The notes under the pieces were generated by a model. That model worked only from the letters and a program-made list of their open reading frames with translations. It did not search any database and was not told the DNA's origin. Below are positions 7,892 through 39,118 of a stretch of 64,000 nt of DNA, piece by piece; the stretch's first letter is position 1; each line of letters starts with the position of its first letter. The stretch lies in assembly GCF_055900595.2 (NCBI RefSeq), contig NZ_CM148325.1. The stretch is one strand, 5' to 3'. The translations under genes and the position numbers were made by a program.

Positions 7892-10582
<2,691 letters not shown>

Positions 10583-23079: not shown

Positions 23080-25062
23080 TTAACGGCTCTGCTTTCTCAA
23101 CAAATAGATAAAATACGGCGCGCCGATAAAGGTCGACAGCAGCCCCGCTGGGATCTGGAATGGAAACAGCACCATCCGCCCACACCAGTCAGCGAACACC
23201 AGCAGTAATCCCCCCACCAGCGCCGAAATCACAATATGCGGCATCGTCCGTCGAAAGCCCATCATCCGTGCGATATGCGGTGCCATCAGGCCAACAAAAC
23301 TCAACGGCCCGATGGTCATTGTCGCGGTCGCCGTCAGGCAAGCCGCCAGCAGCAGTAGCGCAATTCGCGTCGGCGTCAGCGCCATTCCCACGGCTCGTGC
23401 GGTATCACCTCCCAGCGGTAAAATGGTCAGCCAGCGGCGGCACAGCGGGGTAATCGCCAGCAAAATCACCATCACAATTCCGGTGCGCCAGACCTGCGCC
23501 TCGGTCGCGTTGTAGGTCGAACCGGAAATCCAGGTCAGAACTTGCGCCATTCGCGGGTCACCACTTGCCTGCAACATCATCAAAAGCATGGTGAACGCGG
23601 TACTTAACGCCATCCCCGCCAGTAACATGCGGTGTGGAGAAAATCCACCGCGTCCGGCGGCGATCATAATGATCAACAGCGTCACCGCCGCCCCGAGACT
23701 TCCCGCGGGTAACAGCCAGCCAAAGGCATTACCCGGCACCAGAAACAGCATTAACACCACGCCAAACGCCGCGCCGGAGCTAATCCCCAGCACTTCCGGG
23801 CTTGCCATCGGGTTGCCGGTCAGCCGCTGAATAATACAGCCCGCCACCGCCAGCATGACGCCCGCAAACAGCGCCGCCATAATTCGCGGCCAGCGCCAGG
23901 GCATCAAATCCTCGAGCAGCGCCCCGCTCGCCCACGTCCAGCCGTGCGCATCACGACCAAACGACAGCGCCACCACCACAGCAATTATCAGCAGCACACC
24001 GCCAGCAAGGGCAAACGCCAGCACATGTTGGCGTTCAGTCGCGACACGATCGTTGGCCTTCATATCCGGCGCACTGATGCTGCGTAAACGCGGCAGCAGC
24101 CACAGTAACAGCGGCGCACCTATCAACGCCGTCATCGAACCGGTAGAAACTTCCATCCACACGCGAGTCAGCCAGAGGATGATTTGATCGGAAAGCCAGA
24201 GGATCAGCGCACCAATCAGTGACGCCAGCAGCAGTCTTGGCAGCAGACGCCGCGCCCCCAGCATTTTTGCCAGCAGCGGCGCGAACAACCCGATAAAGCC
24301 GATAATCCCCACCGCGTTCACCAGCAGAGCACTGATGACTATCGCCAGCGACAGCGCCGCCAGACGCGCGAGCGATAAAGCCAGTCCGAGATTACGCGCC
24401 ACGCCATCATCAAGCCCCATCAGGGTTAATGGACGAAGTAGCAGTAACGTCAACATCACGCCGCCCAGCAGCTGTGGCCATAAACGCTCAACGCCGCCCC
24501 AGTCGGTTTGCGTCAGCGTTCCGGTACTCCACAGGAACATGCTTTGTAGCTGGTCGTGATGGAAGATAACCAGTAACTGATTGATTGCCCCGCAATAAAG
24601 GCTCACCACAAGCCCCGCGAGGATCAGCGTTACCGGAGAAAGCCGTTTCCCCCACGCGACGCCAAAGACAATTAAGCCAACCACACAAGCCCCTGCCAAT
24701 GCAGCAAACTGGCTCGCCATAGCACCAGGGATCGCCCAGAGCGTGGTGACGGTAATCCCCAGTTGCGCGCCTGTAGCAACGCCCAACGTGGTCGGTTCCG
24801 CCAGCGGGTTACGTAACACTTGCTGAAACAGCACGCCCACCAGTCCCAGACCCGCGCCCACCAGCAGCGAAATCGCCAGACGTGGCAGCAAGCTGTAGTG
24901 AAAAATCATCTGCTCGATGACGTCAATATCCGGCGACCAGGCAGCCTGCGCCCACTGGCTACGCGGCAGCGCCTGAGAGAAGTTCATCCAGGTGAGCACC
25001 GCTGCGGCAACCACCAACAGCGCCAGCAATAATGCCGGGAAAAGCGCAATACGTTTACTCAC
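23080..25062 (-). CDS. fhuB: ferric hydroxamate ABC transporter permease
   Basis: 660-aa ORF, duplicated FecCD-type permease halves; operon fhuA-C-D-B. Confidence 0.9.
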   Translation of the reverse strand: MSKRIALFPALLLALLVVAAAVLTWMNFSQALPRSQWAQAAWSPDIDVIEQMIFHYSLLPRLAISLLVGAGLGLVGVLFQQVLRNPLAEPTTLGVATGAQLGITVTTLWAIPGAMASQFAALAGACVVGLIVFGVAWGKRLSPVTLILAGLVVSLYCGAINQLLVIFHHDQLQSMFLWSTGTLTQTDWGGVERLWPQLLGGVMLTLLLLRPLTLMGLDDGVARNLGLALSLARLAALSLAIVISALLVNAVGIIGFIGLFAPLLAKMLGARRLLPRLLLASLIGALILWLSDQIILWLTRVWMEVSTGSMTALIGAPLLLWLLPRLRSISAPDMKANDRVATERQHVLAFALAGGVLLIIAVVVALSFGRDAHGWTWASGALLEDLMPWRWPRIMAALFAGVMLAVAGCIIQRLTGNPMASPEVLGISSGAAFGVVLMLFLVPGNAFGWLLPAGSLGAAVTLLIIMIAAGRGGFSPHRMLLAGMALSTAFTMLLMMLQASGDPRMAQVLTWISGSTYNATEAQVWRTGIVMVILLAITPLCRRWLTILPLGGDTARAVGMALTPTRIALLLLAACLTATATMTIGPLSFVGLMAPHIARMMGFRRTMPHIVISALVGGLLLVFADWCGRMVLFPFQIPAGLLSTFIGAPYFIYLLRKQSR

Positions 25063-25949
25063 GCTTTACCTCCGATGGCGTTATCCAGAATACGCACAAA
25101 GTGCATTGCCGAGAGCGTCGCACCATAAAACCAGACTGCGGGGACGCGCTGAAAGCGTCCGGCACGGACAAACGGCATGGCCTGCCACAGCGGGGTTGCC
25201 ATTAGTGCGTCCATGTCTTTGCTGTTGTCGTGATCAAAACAGAGCACATCAACGTCCTTATACGCTGCCAGACGATCGATACTGACGGCAGTACTGCCCC
25301 AGAAGTTGGTTTCTCCTTGCCAGGCATTTGGGATGCCGTACTCATCGAGAATTTCCTGGAACAGGCTGTTCGGGCCGAAGACCAGCATATGGCGTGGATC
25401 GATAAGCGTCGTCAGCAATAACGGGCGCGCACCACGCTTCACAAAACGGGGTTTCATGCTGCGGATGAAGTCTTCATAGTGCGCTAAATGCGTTTCTGCT
25501 GCGCTTTGCAGGTTAAGCAAATCTGCCATTTCCGTCAGCGATTTACGCGCCATCGCCAGCGGCTGTTTGCCGTCGCTGAAGTTAAATCCGCGCCCCGGCG
25601 CAATACGTGCCAGCATTTCTGGCGAAGGGCCATACCCTGCCGACCAGACCATAAACGACGGCTTCATTTCGGTCAGCAGTTCAAGGTTAGGTTCTGTCCG
25701 CAAACCGACGTCAATCACCGATTCAGGTAATGGCGGTTCGCTGACCCACAGGCGATAGTTGATGGTATCCGCCACGCCGTAAGGCACGATGCCTAGCGCC
25801 AGCAGTAATTCCACCGGCAACCACTCCAGCGCCACAATACGCTTTGGATCAATAGCCGCCGCGCGGGCGGTATTCATCTGCCATAACAACGGAGATAGCG
25901 CCATCGCTGTTAACAGTCGACGGCGCGTAATTAGAGGTAAGCCACTCAT
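25059..25949 (-). CDS. fhuD: ferric hydroxamate periplasmic binding protein
   Basis: 296 aa from MSGLPLITRRRLLTAMALSPLLW (Tat-like signal); stop overlaps fhuB start, start overlaps fhuC stop. Confidence 0.88.
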   Translation of the reverse strand: MSGLPLITRRRLLTAMALSPLLWQMNTARAAAIDPKRIVALEWLPVELLLALGIVPYGVADTINYRLWVSEPPLPESVIDVGLRTEPNLELLTEMKPSFMVWSAGYGPSPEMLARIAPGRGFNFSDGKQPLAMARKSLTEMADLLNLQSAAETHLAHYEDFIRSMKPRFVKRGARPLLLTTLIDPRHMLVFGPNSLFQEILDEYGIPNAWQGETNFWGSTAVSIDRLAAYKDVDVLCFDHDNSKDMDALMATPLWQAMPFVRAGRFQRVPAVWFYGATLSAMHFVRILDNAIGGKA

Positions 25950-26746
25950 CAATAAACAAAACTCACAGGTGCAGCACCCGCCGGATGCGGCAAAATTCCC
26001 ATCGGGATGCCATAAATCATTTCGAGGGTTTCGCCGCGCATAATTTCCGCAGGCGTTCCCTGCGCAATCATTTCACCGCCGCGCAGGGCGACCAGATAAT
26101 CACAGTAACGCGCAGCCATATTGATATCGTGCAGCACGGCAATGACCGTCAGGCCACGCTCCTGACTTAAACGGTGCACCAGCGCCAGCACATCAACCTG
26201 GTGGGCGATATCCAGCGCCGAGGTCGGTTCGTCGAGCAACAGACAACGGCTATCCTGCGCCACCAGCATGGCGATCCACGCCCGTTGACGTTCGCCGCCA
26301 GAGAGGCTATCGACCAGCCGATGCGCCAGCGGTTTTAAGCCAACCAGCGAGATAGCCTCTTCGACCTTTTCGCGATCTGCCGCGCCAAAGCGCCCCAGCG
26401 CGCCATGCCACGGGTAACGACCAATCGCCACCAGTTCACGCACCGTCATCCCTTCTGCCGGAGGAAGCTGCTGCGGCAAATAAGCCACTTTGCGAGCAAA
26501 CGCTTTGCTGCTCCAGCTTTCCAGCGGCTGGGCATCAAGAAGAATCTCCCCTTCTGACGGTGGCTGATGGCGGCCCAACATTTTTAACAGCGTGGATTTA
26601 CCAGAGCCGTTGTGACCAATCAGACCGGTCACTTTCCCGGCAGGAAAGGTTAACGACAGCGGATGCAAAAGCGTGCGCCCGGGCACACGAAAGGAGATAT
26701 TACGCAGTGCAAAAGTGGTATCGGAATGATTCGTGTATTCCTGCAT
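25949..26746 (-). CDS. fhuC: ferric hydroxamate ABC transporter ATP-binding protein
   Basis: ORF of 300 aa; conserved protein starts at internal MQEYTNHSDTTFALRNISFRVPG giving 265 aa; Walker A GHNGSGKST. Confidence 0.9.
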   Translation of the reverse strand: MQEYTNHSDTTFALRNISFRVPGRTLLHPLSLTFPAGKVTGLIGHNGSGKSTLLKMLGRHQPPSEGEILLDAQPLESWSSKAFARKVAYLPQQLPPAEGMTVRELVAIGRYPWHGALGRFGAADREKVEEAISLVGLKPLAHRLVDSLSGGERQRAWIAMLVAQDSRCLLLDEPTSALDIAHQVDVLALVHRLSQERGLTVIAVLHDINMAARYCDYLVALRGGEMIAQGTPAEIMRGETLEMIYGIPMGILPHPAGAAPVSFVY

Positions 26747-26796
26747 AACAGCCAACTTGTGAAACGGGCACGGAAATCCGTGCCCCAAAAGAGAAA

Positions 26797-28992
26797 TTAG
26801 AAACGGAAGGTTGCGGTTGCAACGACCTGACGTTCTGCGCCCCAGTAACATGCATAATCACGATAGCAACTGGAGACATATTCGCGGTCGAACAGGTTAT
26901 TTACGTTAACACCAACAGAAGAACCAGGCATACCGAAACGAGCAAGATCATATTTTATCATTGCATCAACCAAGGTATACCCCCCAACATTGAATGTCTG
27001 ATTGGTCTTATCACCCGTAGTGTAGAAACTTGAGGTGTCGCCAAAATAACGTGCCCCTGCACCAAGACTCAGACCACTAAGAGCTGTTTCGTGGAAAGTG
27101 TAATCTGCCCACAGCGAAGCCATATTTCGGGGGACCTCTGCCGGGCGTTTACCCTTGTACAATGTATCTTTGGTGTATTCAGCATCGGTGTAGCTGTATG
27201 CCGCAGTCACATTGATATTAGCGTTGACAGCTGCTTTAGCCTCAATCTCAAAGCCACGAGAACGAATCTCCCCCCCTTGTACGCTAAACAAAGTATTACT
27301 TGGATCTGCAGTCAGATTTTTGTCTTTCGTTAATTGGAATACCGAGGCAGTGACAGTGACAGGCGTATCTTTTGGTACGTATTTGACACCTGCTTCGTAC
27401 TGCTTACCGCGAGAAGGATCAAACGGTTTACCTTCTTTAGTCGCTCCAGATACTGGCTCGAAGGATTCGCTATAACTGAAATAAGGTGAAATACCATTAT
27501 CGAACAGATAATTAATACCACCTCTCCAGGTGAACTGCTGATCGTTAATTTCATCCAAAGAACTCGTTGAACGAGTATAGGTAGAGGTTTTCGCAAAATC
27601 GTAACGACCACCCAGCGTCAATACCCACTTATTCCACTCAGACTGATCCTGAATATAAAGGCCTGTCTGTTCCTGACGGTTAATTACCGCATATGGGAAA
27701 TTGATATTGATATTGGCGTTACCGTACTGTGGATCCGTCATGCTAATCGGATTAGCAGTACCATAGTTTGCATCAATATCGTTACGCATTCGCAGGTAAT
27801 CCACGCCAGTAAGCAAAGTATGCGCTACAGCACCGGTAGCAAAGTTGGACTGTAGTTGCGTATCAACAGTAAACGAATTTAAATCTTCGTCTGAACGTAC
27901 ATAAGCACGGCTAATTTGCGCTGGCGCGATGTAACCATTGCCATATACTGCATCGTAGAGTGTATGAATGCGGGTATAGCGCAGATTCTGACGTACAGTA
28001 AAAGTATCATTAAATTCATGAGCAAAACTGTAGCCAATTAATTGTTGACGACGAGACATCTTATTATCTTTCTCGCCTTCATTGAAATCTGTTGGCAATT
28101 TGTGCCAGCTACCATTTGCATCCTGATAGGGAACAACAGTTCCCTGGCGCGGTAACCAACCATAATAGCCCGCATCGGGATCACTCTGGAAATTACTCAG
28201 GAAAGTGAAATCCGTTTTATCATCAGGACGCCAACTGAATGAGGGAGCAACTGCATACCTTGTAGTTTTTGCGTACTTTTGTTGCGCATCCTGACTACGT
28301 CCTAATCCCGTCAAACGATATGACCAAACGCCATCATCATCTATTGCATCACTAAAATCGAATCCGGTCTGCCAAAGATTATCCGTTCCCATTTTGAACT
28401 GGATCTCTTTAATCGGATCCGTTGAAGGCCGTTTGCTTACCATGCTCACTACTCCGCCCGGATGGCTTTTACCATACAGTACGGATACTGGGCCACGGAG
28501 TAATTCCACACGCTCAAGGAAATAAGGATCAATAGAGGCTTCAGAGTAGTTATCCCCCTGAAGTTTTAAGCCATCCAGATATTGGTTAGTATTTACTGTA
28601 CTGGCTGTAGTAAATCCACGTATAGAAACAACATCATACGTTGTTGAACTACCACGCGTTGAAAAGACACTTGGCGTATAATCCAGAGCTTCTTTTACCG
28701 TTGCGGGTTGTTTGATATCCATCTCTTCCCGGGTCACAACCGAAATAGACTGCGGCGTTTTTTCAATTGGTGTATCCGTTTTAGTCGCAGTAGCAGAGTG
28801 CTTCGCCGCAATAGTTGCAGCTGGCCCCCATGCGCTTTCTTGCGGCGCTGGTGCAGCGGTAACGGTGATAGTGTCTTCTTTCGGTTCAACCGCTGCCTGT
28901 GCATAAACAGACATGCCGCTAACCGCTGTGGCTACTACAACTGCGATTTTACGCAGTGAGTGTTTTGGCTGAGCAGTTTTGGAACGCGCCAT
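26797..28992 (-). CDS. fhuA: TonB-dependent ferrichrome outer membrane receptor, divergent allele
   Basis: 731-aa ORF; signal peptide and TonB box (DTITVTA) and C-terminal GAERQVVATATFRF match E. coli FhuA, but the barrel/loop region differs extensively from the K-12 protein as recalled and lacks the loop cysteine pair. Confidence 0.85.
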   Translation of the reverse strand: MARSKTAQPKHSLRKIAVVVATAVSGMSVYAQAAVEPKEDTITVTAAPAPQESAWGPAATIAAKHSATATKTDTPIEKTPQSISVVTREEMDIKQPATVKEALDYTPSVFSTRGSSTTYDVVSIRGFTTASTVNTNQYLDGLKLQGDNYSEASIDPYFLERVELLRGPVSVLYGKSHPGGVVSMVSKRPSTDPIKEIQFKMGTDNLWQTGFDFSDAIDDDGVWSYRLTGLGRSQDAQQKYAKTTRYAVAPSFSWRPDDKTDFTFLSNFQSDPDAGYYGWLPRQGTVVPYQDANGSWHKLPTDFNEGEKDNKMSRRQQLIGYSFAHEFNDTFTVRQNLRYTRIHTLYDAVYGNGYIAPAQISRAYVRSDEDLNSFTVDTQLQSNFATGAVAHTLLTGVDYLRMRNDIDANYGTANPISMTDPQYGNANININFPYAVINRQEQTGLYIQDQSEWNKWVLTLGGRYDFAKTSTYTRSTSSLDEINDQQFTWRGGINYLFDNGISPYFSYSESFEPVSGATKEGKPFDPSRGKQYEAGVKYVPKDTPVTVTASVFQLTKDKNLTADPSNTLFSVQGGEIRSRGFEIEAKAAVNANINVTAAYSYTDAEYTKDTLYKGKRPAEVPRNMASLWADYTFHETALSGLSLGAGARYFGDTSSFYTTGDKTNQTFNVGGYTLVDAMIKYDLARFGMPGSSVGVNVNNLFDREYVSSCYRDYACYWGAERQVVATATFRF

Positions 28993-29012
28993 TGGTATAT
29001 CTCTGATGTAAA

Positions 29013-29047
29013 GTGAATGATAACGTAAACGAGAATGATTATTATAA
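29013..29047 (-). promoter_or_regulatory. Fur box(es) in fhuA promoter
   Basis: Minus-strand TTATAATAATCATTCTC and CGTTATCATTCAC resemble the GATAATGATAATCATTATC Fur consensus, 20-55 bp upstream of the fhuA ATG. Confidence 0.65.
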
Positions 29048-29211
29048 AGATGAGATAATATTCGAAACGCTGGCGGGTTCGCAAGCGGTACGCAATCTGA
29101 GCATTCCTGAGGGGTTAATAAACAATCAGATGAAAAGAAAGGGTTAATACTTTGGGTAGGATGTTATTTTACCGGATGGCGACTCGCCATCCGGTATGTC
29201 ACGCTTAGACG

Positions 29212-31746
29212 TTAATTACTACCAAACATATCCTTGATCCAACCTGCTACGCCGTCACTGTCTTTCTGCTCTTGCTGAGCAGGTTGCTGTTGCGGTTGTT
29301 GCTGCGGCTGAGAAGACTGATCAAACGGATTGCCTGACGGTTGCTGCTGAATCTCACTCTGCTGGCACAGCGATTGCGGATCGCTGGTCCAGACCGGCAA
29401 GACACGCATGCCACCGCTGCAGACAAAGTTGCCGTCGTAGTCCACGCCCATATCTGCAATATCTTCTGGTGGAACAAGATTCAGCGGTGTTGGTGTCTGG
29501 TTAGCCAGATAACGCTGATAAATCGACATTGCCCCACTGGCACCATACAGTTTGGTCGGCTGGTTGTTATCACGGCCTACCCAGGTGATGGTCACCGTGC
29601 TGCCGTCAATGCCCGCAAACCAGGTATCCACGTTGTTGTTGGTAGTCCCGGTTTTGCCCGCCAGATGCAGGTTCGGGTATTTCGCCCCAAGCTGACGACC
29701 CGTACCGCGTTGTACCACCTGCTGCATGGTCCATAGTGTCAGATACGCCGCCTGCGCCGGAACCGCGCGTTCCGCCTGCGGGAAGCTCTGATACAACACC
29801 TTGCCATCTTCCGCGATTACCGAACGCAGCGCAGAAAGCGGTGCTCGGTTACCACCGCTGGCGATGGTCTGGAACGCCTGCGCCACTTCAATTGGCGTTA
29901 AGTTCAACGCCCCCAGCAGCATTGCCGGAACCGGATGCAGCTGATCTTTCGGTACGCCCAGTTTAATCCAGGTATCCGTAACCGCAGGCAGCCCCAGCGC
30001 CATCCCCAGATTTACCGTCGGCACGTTCATCGAACGAGTCAACGCATCCACCAGCATCACTCTGCCACTTTCGCTATAACGACGATCATCGTTCTGCGGT
30101 GACCAGACCTGGCCATTCGGCTGACGCAGCGCGATTGGCGCATCGGCAATCCACGTGTTCAGGCGATAGATTTTCGGCTGGCTTAAGGCCGTCAGATAAG
30201 TCGCTGGTTTTGCAAGGGAACCAATCGAACGACGCGCCTGCATCGCACGGTTGTAACCTGCAAACTGCGGCTCAGAACCACCAACCATCGCACGAACTTC
30301 ACCACTAAAGCGGTCGACGACCACAATTGCCGTTTCCAGATCGCTTAACTTACGCTGTTTCTTCAGTGCCGGAATGCCTTCCACGGCGGCTTTTTCCGCC
30401 GCGTCCTGAGCCACCGAGTCAAAGGTAGTGAAGATCTTCACGCCGGAGAGATCTTTTACCTTATCGCCTAATTTCGCCTGCAGCTCCTGACGCACCAGTT
30501 GCATAAAGGCTGGCTGTGGAGAGATTACCCCACCACGCGGCTGAACCCCCAGCGGACGTGCACTCAACATGTCATAGAGCTCTTGATCAATAATCTGCTG
30601 TTGTTGCAGCAGACGCAGCACCAGGTTACGTCGCTCCAGCGCCAGTTTCGGGTTACGCCACGGGTTGTAGATGGACGCTCCTTTCACCATACCAACCAAC
30701 AGCGCCTGCTGGTCGAGACTCAGCTCTTCTACCGGGCGACCAAAGTAGTACAGGCTCGCCAGCGGGAAACCGCGGATTTCGTTGTCGCCGCTCTGACCGA
30801 GATACACCTCGTTCATATACAGCTCAAGAATGCGGTCTTTGCTGTAACGCGCATCCATGATCAGCGCCATGTAGGCTTCGTTCGCTTTACGCCAGTAAGA
30901 ACGTTCGCTGGAGAGGAACAGGTTTTTCACCAACTGTTGCGTCAGCGTACTCGCCCCCTGTACCGTGCGTCCGGCGGTCAGGTTTGCCAGCACCGCACGT
31001 CCGATGGAGTAGAGACTGATCCCATCATGCTCGTAGAAATGACGGTCTTCTGTCGCCAGCAAAGTATCCACCAGCAAATCCGGGAAACCACTGCGCGGCA
31101 CAAACAAACGCTGCTCACCGTTTGGCGAAGAGATCATGGTGATCAGACGCGGATCAAGACGGAAGAAACCAAACTGACGGTTGTTCTCCATATTGACGAT
31201 CGTCGACAGGTGATCGCCATCAAAGGTCAGACGCGCACGCACCTGCCCTTCTTTACTGTCCGGGAAATCAAACGGACGGCGGATCATCTCAATGCTGTTG
31301 GCCTGCACGGTAAATTCGCCAGGACGGGTCATTTTTGACACCTGACGATACTGGGTCGCCTCCAGCAGCTTCACCATCTCGTTCTTGCTGATGGTCATGT
31401 CTGGCTCAAGGTTGACCATTCGGCCATAAACAGCCGCAGGCAATTGCCAGACTTTGCCATCAATACGGCTACGAATTTTTTGATCGAGATAAACACCGTA
31501 AATGGCGATCAGCACGGCAAAAACGATAGCCAGTTTTAGCAGCAGCCATAGCCAGCCGCGTTTGCCACGAGGCTTACGCCCTTTGCCTTTGCCCTTACCT
31601 TTGCGCGGCATCGGTTCTTCATCCTCATAGTCATCATAATCGTCGTAATCATCGTCATCTTCGTAACGACGACGGCTTACCTTTTGTTTGACCGGACGCG
31701 TCGGTTTCCCTTTGCGTCCAATTGGCTCGCGGTCATTCCCGGCCAT
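29212..31746 (-). CDS. mrcB: penicillin-binding protein 1B (bifunctional glycosyltransferase/transpeptidase)
   Basis: 844 aa from [15 protein letters not shown]; acidic [15 protein letters not shown] tract, TP and GT motifs, Q/P-rich C-terminus; the ORF extends 5 codons further upstream. Confidence 0.9.
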
Positions 31747-31839
31747 GCTTTTTCTCCGCAATATTCAGGCGCAAAAGCCCGATTTTCTGTTCTTCTGTAA
31801 CAAGACAGAAGAAGATATCTCTCAAATTTACTTTGGTCT

Positions 31840-34269
31840 TCATGAATACTTTTTCGTCCGTCGCGTCGGTGCGGTATTTGCCGGATCATCCGGCCAGACG
31901 TGTTTGGGATAACGCCCTTTCATCTCTTTTTGCACATCGCGATACGCTCCTTTCCAGAAGGCGCTCAAATCTCGTGTGATTTGCAGCGGCCTTTGGGCAG
32001 GAGAAAGCAACTCCAGCACCAGCGGCACACGCCCCTGGGCGATCGTCGGATTGGTGGCCTCGCCAAACATCTCCTGCATTCTCACCGCCAGCGCGGGCGG
32101 GTTATCTTCATGGTAACGAATGGCGATCCGGCTTCCCGTCGGCACAGTGTAATGCGCAGGCAATTCACTATCCAGACGTTGCTGCATTCCCCAATCAAGT
32201 AATCCGCGTAGCGCCTGAAAAATATCGAGTGATTTCAGGCCGCGTAGCGAATGTACCCCTGTCATATGCGGCAGCAGCCACGTTTCCAGCGTCGCCAACA
32301 AACTTTCATCATCAACCGCTGGCCAGTCATATTCCGGCAACCACTTTGCGGCGCATAACAAACGCAAGCGTAGCTGTTCCGCTTCCGCCGTCCAGTTAAG
32401 CACGCTTAAGCCTTTATCACGAACGCCGTTAAGCATCGCCTGATGCAGCTCGTCTTCTGAAGGCTTCGCCAGCGGCTGCACTTTTACCGTCAGTTGACCA
32501 ATTTGCAACCGACGCCAGGCTTTCAGCGTACCTTGCGCATCATCCCACTCCACGGTGTCCGATTGCTGCACCAGCTGCGGACAGCGTTGCACTAATTCAT
32601 CGATATCGACCGGTAGCGCCAGTAAAATCCGCGCATCCGGCGAGGCGCTACCCTGCAATAATAACGGTGCGATCAACCATTCGTGGCGGCTGAGCGCATC
32701 ATCGGCATCGAGCATTGCCCCCATGCCGTTTGCCAGTTGATAGCGCCCCTCTTGCCCACGGCGGCGAGCGATGCGATCGGCAAACGCTCCGGCAAGTAAC
32801 GGTGCGATAAGCGAACTGTCTGCCTCACCGCCGCGTACGTTTAAGCGCTTTAACAGTTGCTGGCTACGTTGCTGCCAGGCAGGTTGATTGCGCGAAAACG
32901 CCACGCCCAGATCGATATTGCCCATCCGTGGTGGCTCTTCGAGAATAGCGGCAATTTTTGCAGCGGTAGCAGCTTCGTCGTCGCTCTTTGCGCTCACCAG
33001 CATTGCCGCTAAACGCGGATCGTTACCCAGCGTCGCCATTTTCTGCCCTTTCGTGCTTAGCCGTTCACCGTCCATCGCCCCCAGCATCCGCAACAGGCGT
33101 TTCGCGGCCTGTAAATTCACGGCTGGCGGTTGATCCAGCCAGCTCATCTGCGTCGGATCGCTGCATCCCCATTGCAGTAATTCCATCAGCAAACCGGAGA
33201 GATCGCTTTGTAATATTTCTGGTTCACTTTGCGCGGAGGCGCGTTCTGCTTGTTCTTTGGCGATTAAATGTAAACAGATCCCCGGCTCCAGACGTCCGGC
33301 ACGCCCGGCGCGTTGCGTCATTGATGCCTGGCTAATGCGTTGGGTAATCAGCCGCGTTAGCCCCGTGCGCGGATCAAAGCGCGCCACACGTTCCTGAGCA
33401 CAATCCACCACCAGACGAATACCTTCGATGGTTAAACTGGTTTCAGCAATATTGGTCGCCAGCACCACTTTGCGCATCCCTTGTGGTGCCGGAAGGATCG
33501 CTTTTCGCTGATCGTTCAGCGACAACGCGCCATACAGCGGGCAGAGCAACACATCACTACCGATGCGCGAAGCCAGTTGTTCCTGCACACGCTGAATTTC
33601 TCCGACACCCGGTAAAAATAACAGTAATGAGCCGCTTTCCTGATGCAGCAATTCGGCGGTGGCAACCGCCACGGCTTCATCAAAACGCTGATGAGCGGGC
33701 AGCGGTAAATATCGGCGTTCAACCGGAAACGAGCGCCCTTCTGAGATGACGACGGGCGCTTCTGGCAGCATCTGCTGCAAGCGGTCATTGTCCAGCGTAG
33801 CCGACATAATCAGTAGTTTAAGGTCATCACGCAGCCCCTGTTGCACATCGAGTAACAGCGCCAACGCCAGATCCGCCTGCAAGCTGCGCTCATGAAACTC
33901 ATCGAGGATCACCAATCCAACGCCGCTCAGTTCAGGGTCACGCTGGATCATGCGCGTCAACACGCCTTCGGTAACTACTTCCAGGCGAGTATTTGGCCCG
34001 ACACAGTTTTGCGCGCGCATCCGGTAGCCTACCGTATCACCTGTTTTTTCGTTAAGCAGTTCCGCCAGTCGTTGCGCAACGTTACGCGCCGCCAGACGAC
34101 GCGGCTCCAGCAGGATAATTTTTCCGTTAATGCCGGGATGCGCCAGCAGTTGCAGCGGCAGCCAGGTTGATTTCCCGGCCCCGGTCGGCGCACTTAATAA
34201 CACCTGCGGTGCACCATCGAGGGCAGCAAGTAACTCAGGTAAGACGGCAGCAACGGGCAACGACGACAC
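31840..34269 (-). CDS. hrpB: ATP-dependent RNA helicase HrpB (DEAH-box)
   Basis: ORF of 824 aa; Walker A APTGAGKST and DEFHER motifs; probable GTG start at VSSLPVAAVL giving 809 aa. Confidence 0.85.
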   Translation of the reverse strand: MSSLPVAAVLPELLAALDGAPQVLLSAPTGAGKSTWLPLQLLAHPGINGKIILLEPRRLAARNVAQRLAELLNEKTGDTVGYRMRAQNCVGPNTRLEVVTEGVLTRMIQRDPELSGVGLVILDEFHERSLQADLALALLLDVQQGLRDDLKLLIMSATLDNDRLQQMLPEAPVVISEGRSFPVERRYLPLPAHQRFDEAVAVATAELLHQESGSLLLFLPGVGEIQRVQEQLASRIGSDVLLCPLYGALSLNDQRKAILPAPQGMRKVVLATNIAETSLTIEGIRLVVDCAQERVARFDPRTGLTRLITQRISQASMTQRAGRAGRLEPGICLHLIAKEQAERASAQSEPEILQSDLSGLLMELLQWGCSDPTQMSWLDQPPAVNLQAAKRLLRMLGAMDGERLSTKGQKMATLGNDPRLAAMLVSAKSDDEAATAAKIAAILEEPPRMGNIDLGVAFSRNQPAWQQRSQQLLKRLNVRGGEADSSLIAPLLAGAFADRIARRRGQEGRYQLANGMGAMLDADDALSRHEWLIAPLLLQGSASPDARILLALPVDIDELVQRCPQLVQQSDTVEWDDAQGTLKAWRRLQIGQLTVKVQPLAKPSEDELHQAMLNGVRDKGLSVLNWTAEAEQLRLRLLCAAKWLPEYDWPAVDDESLLATLETWLLPHMTGVHSLRGLKSLDIFQALRGLLDWGMQQRLDSELPAHYTVPTGSRIAIRYHEDNPPALAVRMQEMFGEATNPTIAQGRVPLVLELLSPAQRPLQITRDLSAFWKGAYRDVQKEMKGRYPKHVWPDDPANTAPTRRTKKYS

Positions 34270-38645: not shown

Positions 38646-39118
38646 CAGTGGCGTATATTGCTATCGGCAGCAATCTGGCCTCTCCGCTGGAGCAGGTCAA
38701 TGCTGCCCTGAAGGCAATAGATGACATTCCTGAAAGCCGCATTCTTGCCGTTTCTTCGTTTTACCGCACCCCACCACTGGGGCCGCAAGATCAACCCGAT
38801 TACTTAAACGCAGCCGTGGCGCTGGAAACCTCTCTTACAGCTGAAGAACTCCTCAACCACACACAGCGTATTGAGTTGCAGCAAGGTCGCGTCCGCAAAG
38901 CTGAACGCTGGGGACCGCGCACGCTCGATCTTGATATCATGTTGTTTGGTAATCAGGTCATAAACACTGAGCGCCTGACCGTTCCGCACTATGATATGAA
39001 GAATCGTGGATTTATGTTGTGGCCGCTGTTTGAGATCGCGCCGGAACTGGTGTTTCCTGATGGTGAAACGCTGCAAGCAAGACTCACTACTTTCCCTCCC
39101 TGCCCACAGCACTGGTAA
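38642..39118 (+). CDS. folK: 2-amino-4-hydroxy-6-hydroxymethyldihydropteridine pyrophosphokinase
   Basis: 158-aa [31 protein letters not shown] overlaps pcnB stop (ATGA); C-terminal approx. 18 residues differ from the K-12 protein as recalled. Confidence 0.85.

Follow-up and report, generated by a model that had tools for sequence, protein, structure and literature searches.

The window, by which we mean the whole 64,000-nucleotide stretch of DNA analysed here, very probably carries a rare E4 allele of fhuA, one of four deeply diverged classes (E1-E4) that share a single site in E. coli. The allele is a member of a published class, cluster E4 as defined by Wang, Chen, Hu, Zhu, White and Koster (Wang et al. 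2018, Infect Immun 86:e00573-18; bioRxiv 10.1101/320069), and the finding is thus real but already known; the class itself, the indels in its loops and its spread by recombination all appeared in print between 2018 and 2025, and nothing here is new in kind. What we add to Wang et al. 2018 are base-level junctions, a frequency of 1.7%, a division into the sub-lineages E4a and E4b, a recent transfer between lineages and a GC3 anomaly.

According to the original description the hallmarks of E4 are unique insertions in L3 (Indel 1) and L10 (Indel 2), a deletion in L4 and changes to L2, L5, L6 and L7, and the cluster lies apart from E1/S1/E2 and E3/S2, together with the group II FhuA proteins of other Enterobacteriaceae (bioRxiv 10.1101/320069). 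We observe these hallmarks in the window, where the protein has gained four residues in L3 (GSWH) and five in L10 (TSSFY, plus one more) and has lost 18 in L4 and nine in L5. Moreover, a neighbour-joining tree of the divergent core places the window protein inside group II and away from E1, E2 and E3, and amino acid identity of the core is 0.61 to E1, 0.64 to E3 and 0.79-0.86 to group II (86% to Enterobacter kobei). The FhuA of EPEC E2348/69 (WP_000124388.1, cluster E4) shares with the window the locus, the L3 and L10 insertions, the L4 deletion, the N-terminus and the TonB box, and with 99.7% DNA identity between the two cores nothing essential differs. The group II proteins of E. kobei, Trabulsiella odontotermitis and Pseudescherichia vulneris are likewise similar, having the same indel pattern, lengths of 728-733 aa and cores 84-86% identical in amino acids; however, their N-termini and signal peptides differ from those of the window, which are of E. 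coli type, and their genes have a GC3 of 0.63-0.77 and a DNA identity to the window gene of ~0.75.

A census by core match of 5,426 complete E. coli genomes assigned ~3,703 to E1, ~1,068 to E2, 562 to E3 and 90 (1.7%) to E4, with the prototype EPEC strain E2348/69 among the E4 carriers and the reading frame intact at the same locus. Within E4 we distinguish two sub-lineages, E4a and E4b, at 96.2% DNA identity (dS 0.13). The class is fixed in the lineage of the window strain, and the exact window protein is present on hundreds of public contigs.

Location and mosaic structure of the gene

The initial annotation placed the reading frame for the 731-aa protein correctly, and the gene lies on the minus strand, with its ATG beginning at 28992 and its stop codon at 26797-26799 (Table 1); in the near-identical genome Z0117EC0005 the protein is RefSeq entry WP_000124389.1. 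It opens the fhuACDB operon, in the order mrcB-fhuA-fhuCDB. The remaining genes of the operon, fhuC, fhuD and fhuB (23080..26746), which supply its inner-membrane and periplasmic partners, are all intact and unremarkable for E. coli, with dN to other E. coli of 0.003-0.012. Upstream of fhuA a consensus scan marks a sigma-70-like site at 29084-29055, and an AT-rich stretch at ~29045-29015 is by resemblance a putative Fur box. An Rfam scan of both strands from 26000 to 29600 (E up to 0.1) gave no match, opposite-strand reading frames reach at most 87 aa, and repeats are short pairs at chance level, with no sign of a hidden element.

Table 1. Coordinates of fhuA, its segments and its operon partners in the window
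Feature	Position	Strand	Basis
fhuA CDS, allele class E4, 731 aa	26797..28992	-	ORF and annotation of a 100% match
Conserved 5' segment (gene nt 1-189)	28804..28992	-	variable-site table, protein alignment
Junction segment (gene nt 190-260)	28733..28803	-	base for base as class E3, unlike E1/E2 (variable-site table)
E4-specific divergent core	26846..28732	-	sliding identity 0.35-0.74 to K-12; composition
Conserved 3' end (final 49 nt with the stop codon)	26797..26845	-	invariant in all classes (variable-site table)
fhuA upstream regulatory region	28993..29100	-	99-100% identical to K-12
Tract near-identical to EPEC E2348/69	26607..29006	-	SNP positions and density
fhuC	25949-26746	-	ORF, annotation of near-identical genome
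fhuD	25059-25949	-	ORF, annotation of near-identical genome
fhuB	23080-25062	-	ORF, annotation of near-identical genome

Sliding-window identity against K-12 and a table of variable sites located sharp junctions at gene nt 189 and at the last 49 nt. The 5' segment, which encodes the signal peptide, the TonB box DTITV and mature residues 1-30, is essentially invariant across E1-E4, and the junction segment that follows has an identity of 0.98 to E3 and 0.84 to K-12. [quoted passage not shown] The gene had initially been read as a mosaic in which loop-encoding sequence was replaced, and its E. coli-typical ends, divergent AT-rich middle and sharp junctions bear out the mosaic; however, the exchange is not one of loop sequence, as the protein is of another type from mature residue ~31 to ~699, plug and barrel strands included.

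When aligned with the 747-aa FhuA of HB101, our K-12-type reference for proteins, the window protein is identical at 477/719 aligned residues (66%) and at 61% in the core. The K-12-like ends that had been recognized earlier are exact, with 63/63 identities over the signal peptide and mature residues 1-30 and an identical run of 15 residues at the C-terminus. An earlier estimate had about one third of the positions differ in the barrel and loops, but the divergence is not limited to these: although it is strongest in the surface loops, the transmembrane strands differ too and the plug is only 70% identical. Similarly, the cysteine pair of loop 4 is absent as claimed, yet the 16-residue difference in length is the net of nine indels (-1, +1, +4 (GSWH) in L3, -14 and -4 in L4, +1, -9 in L5, +5 (TSSFY) and +1 in L10), of which the two in L4 take out 18 residues with Cys318, Cys329 and also Y325. 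The cysteine pair of L11 is retained. K-12 FhuA (cluster E1; PDB 1BY3, 2FCP, 8A8C with T5 pb5 and 8A60 with Llp) shares with that of the window the operon, the promoter region, the signal peptide, the TonB box and the C-terminal strand, and differs from it in the loops, where the window has 18 residues fewer in L4 (without C318-C329 and Y325), nine fewer in L5, four more in L3 and six more in L10, in L8 (DPSNTLF in the window vs DPEGSFF, F557L) and in the plug, where F115 is replaced by N. Between E1 and E4 fhuA, pS is 0.71, dS is ~2.2 and saturated, and dN/dS is 0.12. The flanking genes, which had been thought near-identical to K-12, are in fact 94-97% identical in DNA (dS 0.12-0.29), since the strain comes from a lineage that is rare and divergent; unlike these wider flanks, the ~200-300 nt on either side of the core are 99-100% identical to K-12.

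Identity and likely function of the receptor

The sequence marks the product of the gene as a genuine FhuA, encoded in an fhuACDB operon that is intact, and predicts that it is a functional, TonB-dependent transporter of ferrichrome. Its plug, its barrel and above all its extracellular loops are those of the group II lineage, which is typical of Enterobacter, Klebsiella and Trabulsiella. The protein scores 1330.4 bits with the NCBIfam FhuA equivalog model NF007465 (cut-off 803), and with the models of its sister receptors FoxA (601, cut-off 1300) and FhuE (94, cut-off 666) it falls below threshold. Residues 34-731 align end to end with residues 1-714 of the solved FhuA chains (E 1.5e-288), a match that supports a full-length plug and 22-strand barrel; relatives in the cluster carry PF07715 and PF00593. 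An AlphaFold2 model built from a 25-sequence alignment was set aside (mean pLDDT 44, pTM 0.46), and the fold is called from these sequence matches. The TonB-box region EDTITVT is the same as in K-12, all 25 FhuAs compared, drawn from every group, have R81, Y116, Y244, W246 and Y313, and purifying selection is strong, E4a and E4b differing by dS 0.133 and dN 0.0071 (dN/dS 0.054). Some positions that contact ligand or phage are nonetheless changed around the plug apex (G99/Q100) and at F115N, Y315N, F391Y and F557L, with Y325 deleted, and unchanged ferrichrome specificity is therefore not guaranteed. Of the residues that we take, partly after the 1998 structures, to form the ferrichrome pocket, Y244/W246 and F115/Y116 are backed by the literature.

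Many newly isolated phages dock on FhuA, as T1, T5 and phi80 do, and so do colicin M, microcin J25 and albomycin, together with conjugates of siderophores and drugs. The FhuA class of a strain should therefore bear on host range in phage therapy, on receptor-based prediction of host range and on the uptake of Trojan-horse antibiotics. Because the determinants in L4, L5 and L8 differ in E4 (for loop phenotypes we follow the loop deletions of Endriss & Braun 2004 as cited in PMC10373560 and PMC9586334), an altered sensitivity to T1, T5, phi80, colicin M, microcin J25 and albomycin is plausible from sequence; a literature search covering E4 phage and colicin phenotypes, E2348/69 and balancing selection on fhuA found no experimental report.

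Cassette exchange and the origin of the class

The whole fhuA gene moved recently between E. coli lineages. In the tract shared with E2348/69 the window has 10 differences over ~2.4 kb (0.4%), whereas the flanks are 3-5% different (background identity 94.6-97.2%), and dS is 0.014 in fhuA as against 0.17-0.26 in the flanking genes; a near-identical tract within such flanks records that an fhuA cassette was recently exchanged between lineages. Mechanistically, the class-specific core is bracketed by short invariant gene ends in which crossover by homologous recombination is possible, so that the core travels between E. coli lineages as a cassette. We infer that phages, colicin M and microcins docking on the FhuA loops may impose a frequency-dependent selection that keeps the classes, under which E4 would be expected to escape agents fitted to the K-12-type surface while keeping its import of hydroxamate siderophores. 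Multiple FhuA types and recombinational allelic replacement in E. coli have been published (bioRxiv 10.1101/320069; PMC6715731). Mosaic E. coli outer membrane protein genes (ompC, ompF, ompA, lamB and others; Chen et al. 2022 AEM, bioRxiv 2021.09.21.461324; PMC12175518) and the fhuA allelic replacement in ST410 (PMC6715731) show the same conserved ends or scaffold with exchangeable variable parts, the same incongruence with strain phylogeny and variable parts that coincide with phage-binding loops; unlike in the mosaic genes, however, the divergence of E4 extends beyond short hypervariable regions to nearly the whole mature protein.

We consider it unlikely that the gene is instead a recent import, in which the middle of a K-12-like fhuA was swapped for DNA of another genus (Salmonella, Citrobacter, Enterobacter or an AT-rich enterobacterium). 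It is true that the core clusters among FhuA proteins of other genera and apart from E1-E3, that a GC3 of 0.385 is unusual for E. coli and that the junctions are sharp. Yet a search of 5.8 billion protein sequences gave nothing outside E. coli closer than 86% identity, the best species-representative genome in a scan of 100,044 is Trabulsiella at 85%, and the nearest non-E. coli fhuA has a DNA identity of ~0.75 with pS above 0.75, its synonymous sites being saturated. Furthermore, 0/77 homologues have a GC3 below 0.48, and E4a and E4b are already dS 0.133 apart inside E. coli, which is comparable to the dS of 0.155-0.29 between the flanks in the lineages that carry them. The earlier idea of a private or recent acquisition from Salmonella, Citrobacter or Enterobacter gives way to a standing class in 90/5,426 genomes, and E4 is old within Escherichia, with no recent import from another genus; the dN between E4 and E. 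kobei fhuA, given below, also speaks for this age.

Rapid divergence in situ, by point mutation of a K-12-like allele under phage-driven positive selection, has in its favour that the surface loops differ most and that fhuA is, as reported through a citing paper, among the positively selected genes of E. coli (Chen 2006, Petersen 2007); it is nevertheless close to negligible in probability, for E1 and E4 stand at saturated synonymous divergence with a low dN/dS, plug and transmembrane strands differ as well, and other genera hold closer relatives of E4 than E. coli does. Divergence in situ, hypermutation included, is refuted by a saturated core dS beside flanks of the same strains at only dS 0.12-0.29. 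A shorter reading frame, a missing cysteine pair and an odd base composition could also suggest a decaying copy, an artefact of assembly or an fhuA locus occupied by another TonB-dependent receptor (FoxA- or FhuE-like), a set of explanations that we regard as highly improbable. The frame is intact in 90 complete genomes at one locus with a within-class dN/dS of 0.054, and the window is 99.986% identical over 50 kb to an independent complete genome, on which grounds pseudogene and artefact were rejected; a paralogue swap was rejected as well, the FhuA equivalog model being passed and FoxA and FhuE remaining below their cut-offs.

Base composition and the age of the FhuA classes

The AT-richness reported for fhuA relative to its flanks was confirmed and is not uniform with its neighbours: the gene has a GC of 0.454 and a GC3 of 0.385 (~0.44 and ~0.38 in the core), against a GC3 of 0.58-0.69 in mrcB, fhuC, fhuD, fhuB and hrpB and of 0.535 in K-12 fhuA. 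E3 fhuA is similarly low (0.40), whereas relatives of E3 and E4 elsewhere are at 0.56-0.77 and the 77 homologues span 0.48-0.83. The E. coli copies of E3 and E4 are thus much richer in AT than all their relatives, and the GC3 of E4, below that of every relative sampled and of the E. coli flanks, is not what simple long residence would lead one to expect.

The literature attributes the distribution of the classes to gene exchange after speciation. We offer, as a possibility that we ourselves hold doubtful, that the fhuA classes are instead an ancient balanced polymorphism spanning genera. If so, the AT-richness of E3 and E4 would be an in situ decay towards mutational equilibrium, since rare divergent classes would seldom meet a homologous partner and would undergo less GC-biased gene conversion, and fhuA would be a natural setting in which to test, at one and the same locus, how bacterial GC content is maintained. 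Neither this AT-richness nor the species-level dS between matching E. coli and Salmonella classes is addressed in the published FhuA accounts that we examined. A trans-genus polymorphism finds support in two comparisons: E. coli E1 and Salmonella S1 fhuA differ by dS 1.13, like the 1.03-1.39 of their flanking genes, and dN between E4 and Enterobacter group II is at species level, being 0.09 for fhuA against E. kobei and commensurate with fhuC (0.07) and fhuD (0.17).

Identity and mosaic structure of the window fhuA

The window fhuA belongs to an already described allele class. Wang et al. 2018 (bioRxiv 10.1101/320069; Infect Immun 86:e00573-18) divided E. coli FhuA into classes E1-E4 and Salmonella FhuA into clusters S1 and S2, and the window allele matches exactly the features they gave for E4, namely insertions in loops L3 and L10, an L4 deletion, and altered L2, L5, L6 and L7. 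With 1330 bits against a cut-off of 803 the protein clears the NCBIfam FhuA equivalog model, its alignment with solved FhuA structures runs from end to end (E about 1e-288), and R81, Y116, Y244, W246 and Y313 are invariant in 25 FhuAs drawn from all groups. FoxA and FhuE are rejected as identities, as the protein fails both NCBIfam models. The mrcB-fhuA-fhuC/fhuD/fhuB order is standard for E. coli and agrees with the RefSeq annotation of E. coli Z0117EC0005 (dog, Korea), which matches the window at 99.986% identity across 50 kb and whose corresponding product is WP_000124389.1, 'ferrichrome porin FhuA'. Upstream of fhuA the DNA is 99-100% K-12-like, with a promoter-like site. In the fhuA interval an Rfam search gave no match, the opposite strand held no sizeable ORF and a repeat search returned no meaningful repeats.

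Coordinates of the features in the window and in comparison DNA
Feature	Coordinates	Strand	Remarks
glnD	7910-10582		
fhuB	23080-25062		same side of fhuA as fhuC and fhuD
fhuD	25059-25949		same side as fhuC
fhuC	25949-26746		other side of fhuA from mrcB
fhuA	26797-28992	minus	ORF, 731 aa
5' invariant segment	28992-28804		gene nt 1-189; essentially invariant in all classes
Segment common base for base to E3 only	28803-28733		gene nt 190-260
Class-specific core	28732-26846		
3' invariant segment	26845-26797		last 49 nt
Low-diversity shoulders of the core	26632-26830; 28820-29069		
Tract compared with E2348/69	26607-29006		
mrcB-fhuA spacer	28993-29211		219 nt in window and K-12
mrcB	29212-31746		
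hrpB-mrcB spacer	31747-31839		93 nt; 195 nt in K-12
hrpB	31840-34269		
yad-type fimbrial operon region	39063-46775		
Stretch checked against Z0117EC0005	5143-55142		
GC3 interval, E4	26846-28732		window
GC3 interval, E3	L003:6001-8190		
GC3 interval, Salmonella S2	L089:3001-5190		
GC3 interval, E. kobei	L092:3001-5193		
Fimbrial-operon intervals	L085:657-5538; L088:22-1032; L092:1-2800		comparison DNA

The initial annotation correctly placed the ORF, at 731 aa versus 747 aa, and its reading of both protein ends as K-12-like is borne out: compared with the K-12-type reference (HB101 protein, 747 aa), the 33-residue signal peptide, mature residues 1-30 including the TonB box, and the C-terminal 15 residues are identical, while overall 477/719 aligned residues (66%) are shared. 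The reported loss in loop 4 is real, with deletions of 14 and 4 residues that remove Cys318 and Cys329, but the 16-residue shortfall is the net of nine indels, which also include +4 (GSWH) in L3, -9 in L5, +5 (TSSFY) and +1 in L10, and three single-residue changes; the L11 cysteine pair is kept. The divergence, put earlier at about one third of barrel and loop positions, extends beyond the loops: barrel plus loops are 62% identical, and the plug 70%.

Junctions were mapped to the base from a variable-site table of five alleles. Among six genomes the core has a nucleotide diversity of 0.2-0.7, the adjoining 200-250 nt at each end have 0-0.03, and sequence at greater distance has 0.02-0.05. The signal peptides of proteins from group II, the FhuA clade typical of Enterobacter, Klebsiella and Trabulsiella, are unlike the E. 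coli-type N-terminus of the window protein, which confirms intragenic mosaicism. The mosaic proposed earlier stands in part, in its E. coli-type ends and divergent core, but nearly the whole mature protein, and not the loop-encoding part alone, is of the other type, and the class is ancient. The AT-richness noted earlier also holds (GC 0.454 and GC3 0.385, versus GC3 0.58-0.69 in five neighbouring genes and 0.535 in K-12 fhuA), whereas the flanking genes, supposedly near-identical to K-12, are only 94-97% identical (dS 0.12-0.29). The low-diversity shoulders, seen among six diverse genomes, could reflect constraint (promoter, signal peptide; fhuA-fhuC junction) or homogenisation through repeated cassette exchange.

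E4 among E. coli alleles and enterobacterial relatives

In a census of 5,426 complete E. coli genomes by core-specific megablast searches, four classes cover 5,411: E1 (K-12-like, 747 aa; about 3,703), E2 (749/752 aa, 84-86% DNA identity to E1; about 1,068), E3 (729 aa; 562) and E4 (731 aa; 90, or 1.7%), with all 90 E4 copies chromosomal and single-copy. E4a (at least 99.7% identity) is found in the rare lineage to which the window belongs, in the EPEC prototype E2348/69 and in a single pig isolate; the 77 genomes with E4b (96.2% identity) are of pig, poultry, cattle, human and water origin. Between the two sub-lineages dS is 0.133 and dN 0.0071, and the ratio of 0.054 indicates strong purifying selection. 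Hundreds of public contigs carry the exact window protein. The window glnD is matched at 99% identity or above in only 8/5,424 complete genomes (nearly all others about 95-96%), which places the strain in a lineage of E. coli that is rare and branches deeply; all eight carry E4a fhuA.

Wang et al. 2018 (bioRxiv 10.1101/320069) grouped E1 with S1 and E2, and E3 with S2, leaving E4 alone in enterobacterial group II. Similarly, our core tree places the window allele within group II, whose internal order is roughly taxonomic (Serratia, then Rahnella and Ewingella, then Enterobacteriaceae), and E1/E2/E3 with their Salmonella counterparts in a separate clade. The nearest proteins outside E. coli are from Trabulsiella (86%) and Enterobacter kobei (85%), followed by Pseudescherichia, Scandinavium and K. 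aerogenes (83-84%); K-12 FhuA, by contrast, has relatives at 93% among some Salmonella and at 89-91% among Citrobacter, Enterobacter and Buttiauxella, and E3 shares 95% identity with the main Salmonella cluster. Follow-up papers generalised 'mosaic evolution' of outer-membrane protein genes (bioRxiv 2021.09.21.461324; PMC12175518), and an ST410 study (PMC6715731) described fhuA allelic replacement by recombination, naming the E3 protein WP_000124383.1, the accession that represents E3 here as well.

Age and movement of the E4 allele

Against E2348/69 the window has a background identity of 94.6-97.2% (flank dS 0.17-0.26), yet the tract spanning fhuA holds only 10 differences (fhuA dS 0.014). 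The whole gene has therefore been transferred recently from one E. coli lineage to another, with crossovers within the invariant ends or outside them. A recent foreign import of E4 itself is rejected. Group II genes share a DNA identity of about 0.75 with E4, and synonymous sites are saturated. The E4a-E4b dS is comparable in size to the divergence between the flanks of the host lineages (0.155-0.29), and the fhuA dN to E. kobei (0.09) agrees with that of fhuC (0.07) and fhuD (0.17), so E4 has long been established in the Escherichia gene pool.

Two further observations are secondary to this main finding. GC3 is low in both minority classes (E4 0.385, E3 0.403; E1/E2 0.53), and 0.56-0.77 in their closest relatives (Salmonella S2 0.562, E. 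kobei 0.654). Among 77 species-representative homologues (0.48-0.83, median 0.65) no donor with E3/E4-like GC3 was found, and the candidate explanations are an unsampled low-GC donor and, in classes that seldom recombine, AT drift in situ. Between E. coli E1 (K-12) and Salmonella S1, fhuA dS (1.13) equals that of the flanking genes (mrcB 1.10, fhuC 1.03, fhuD 1.39), such that the matching classes appear as old as the genera, and E3 and S2 are at least as divergent. This suggests that the classes are at least as old as the E. coli/Salmonella split, and a genus-spanning polymorphism would fit better than the 'exchange after speciation' of Wang et al. 2018.

Possible functional meaning and neighbouring variable loci

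In published structures T5 pb5 contacts every loop of K-12 FhuA but EL1-3, plus plug residues F115 and Y116, with EL8 critical. According to published structures and loop-deletion work, L4 is important for T1 and L8 for T5, phi80 and SO1-like phages, and Y325 and F557 stand out at the entrance to the lumen. Unlike K-12, the window FhuA is without Y325, its L4 being shorter by 18 residues, and has F557L (L8 DPSNTLF) and N in place of F115; together with the shortened L5 these differences make it plausible that E4 FhuA might escape agents adapted to the K-12-type surface. Literature searches turned up no experiment on an E4 allele.

Beside the fhuA cassette, the mrcB-fhuA intergenic site is a second variable point: a chaperone-usher fimbrial operon lies there, or directly upstream of fhuA, in E2348/69, one E2-class strain and Enterobacter kobei. 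Compared with K-12, about 100 nt are missing from the hrpB-mrcB spacer, and among the flanking genes hrpB has diverged most (dS 0.29, against 0.12-0.23 for the others). The yad-type fimbrial region is another hypervariable surface-structure locus within the window, aligning poorly with E2348/69 (66% identity over 41523-43331, gaps on both sides), and the genes around it are 90-97% identical.
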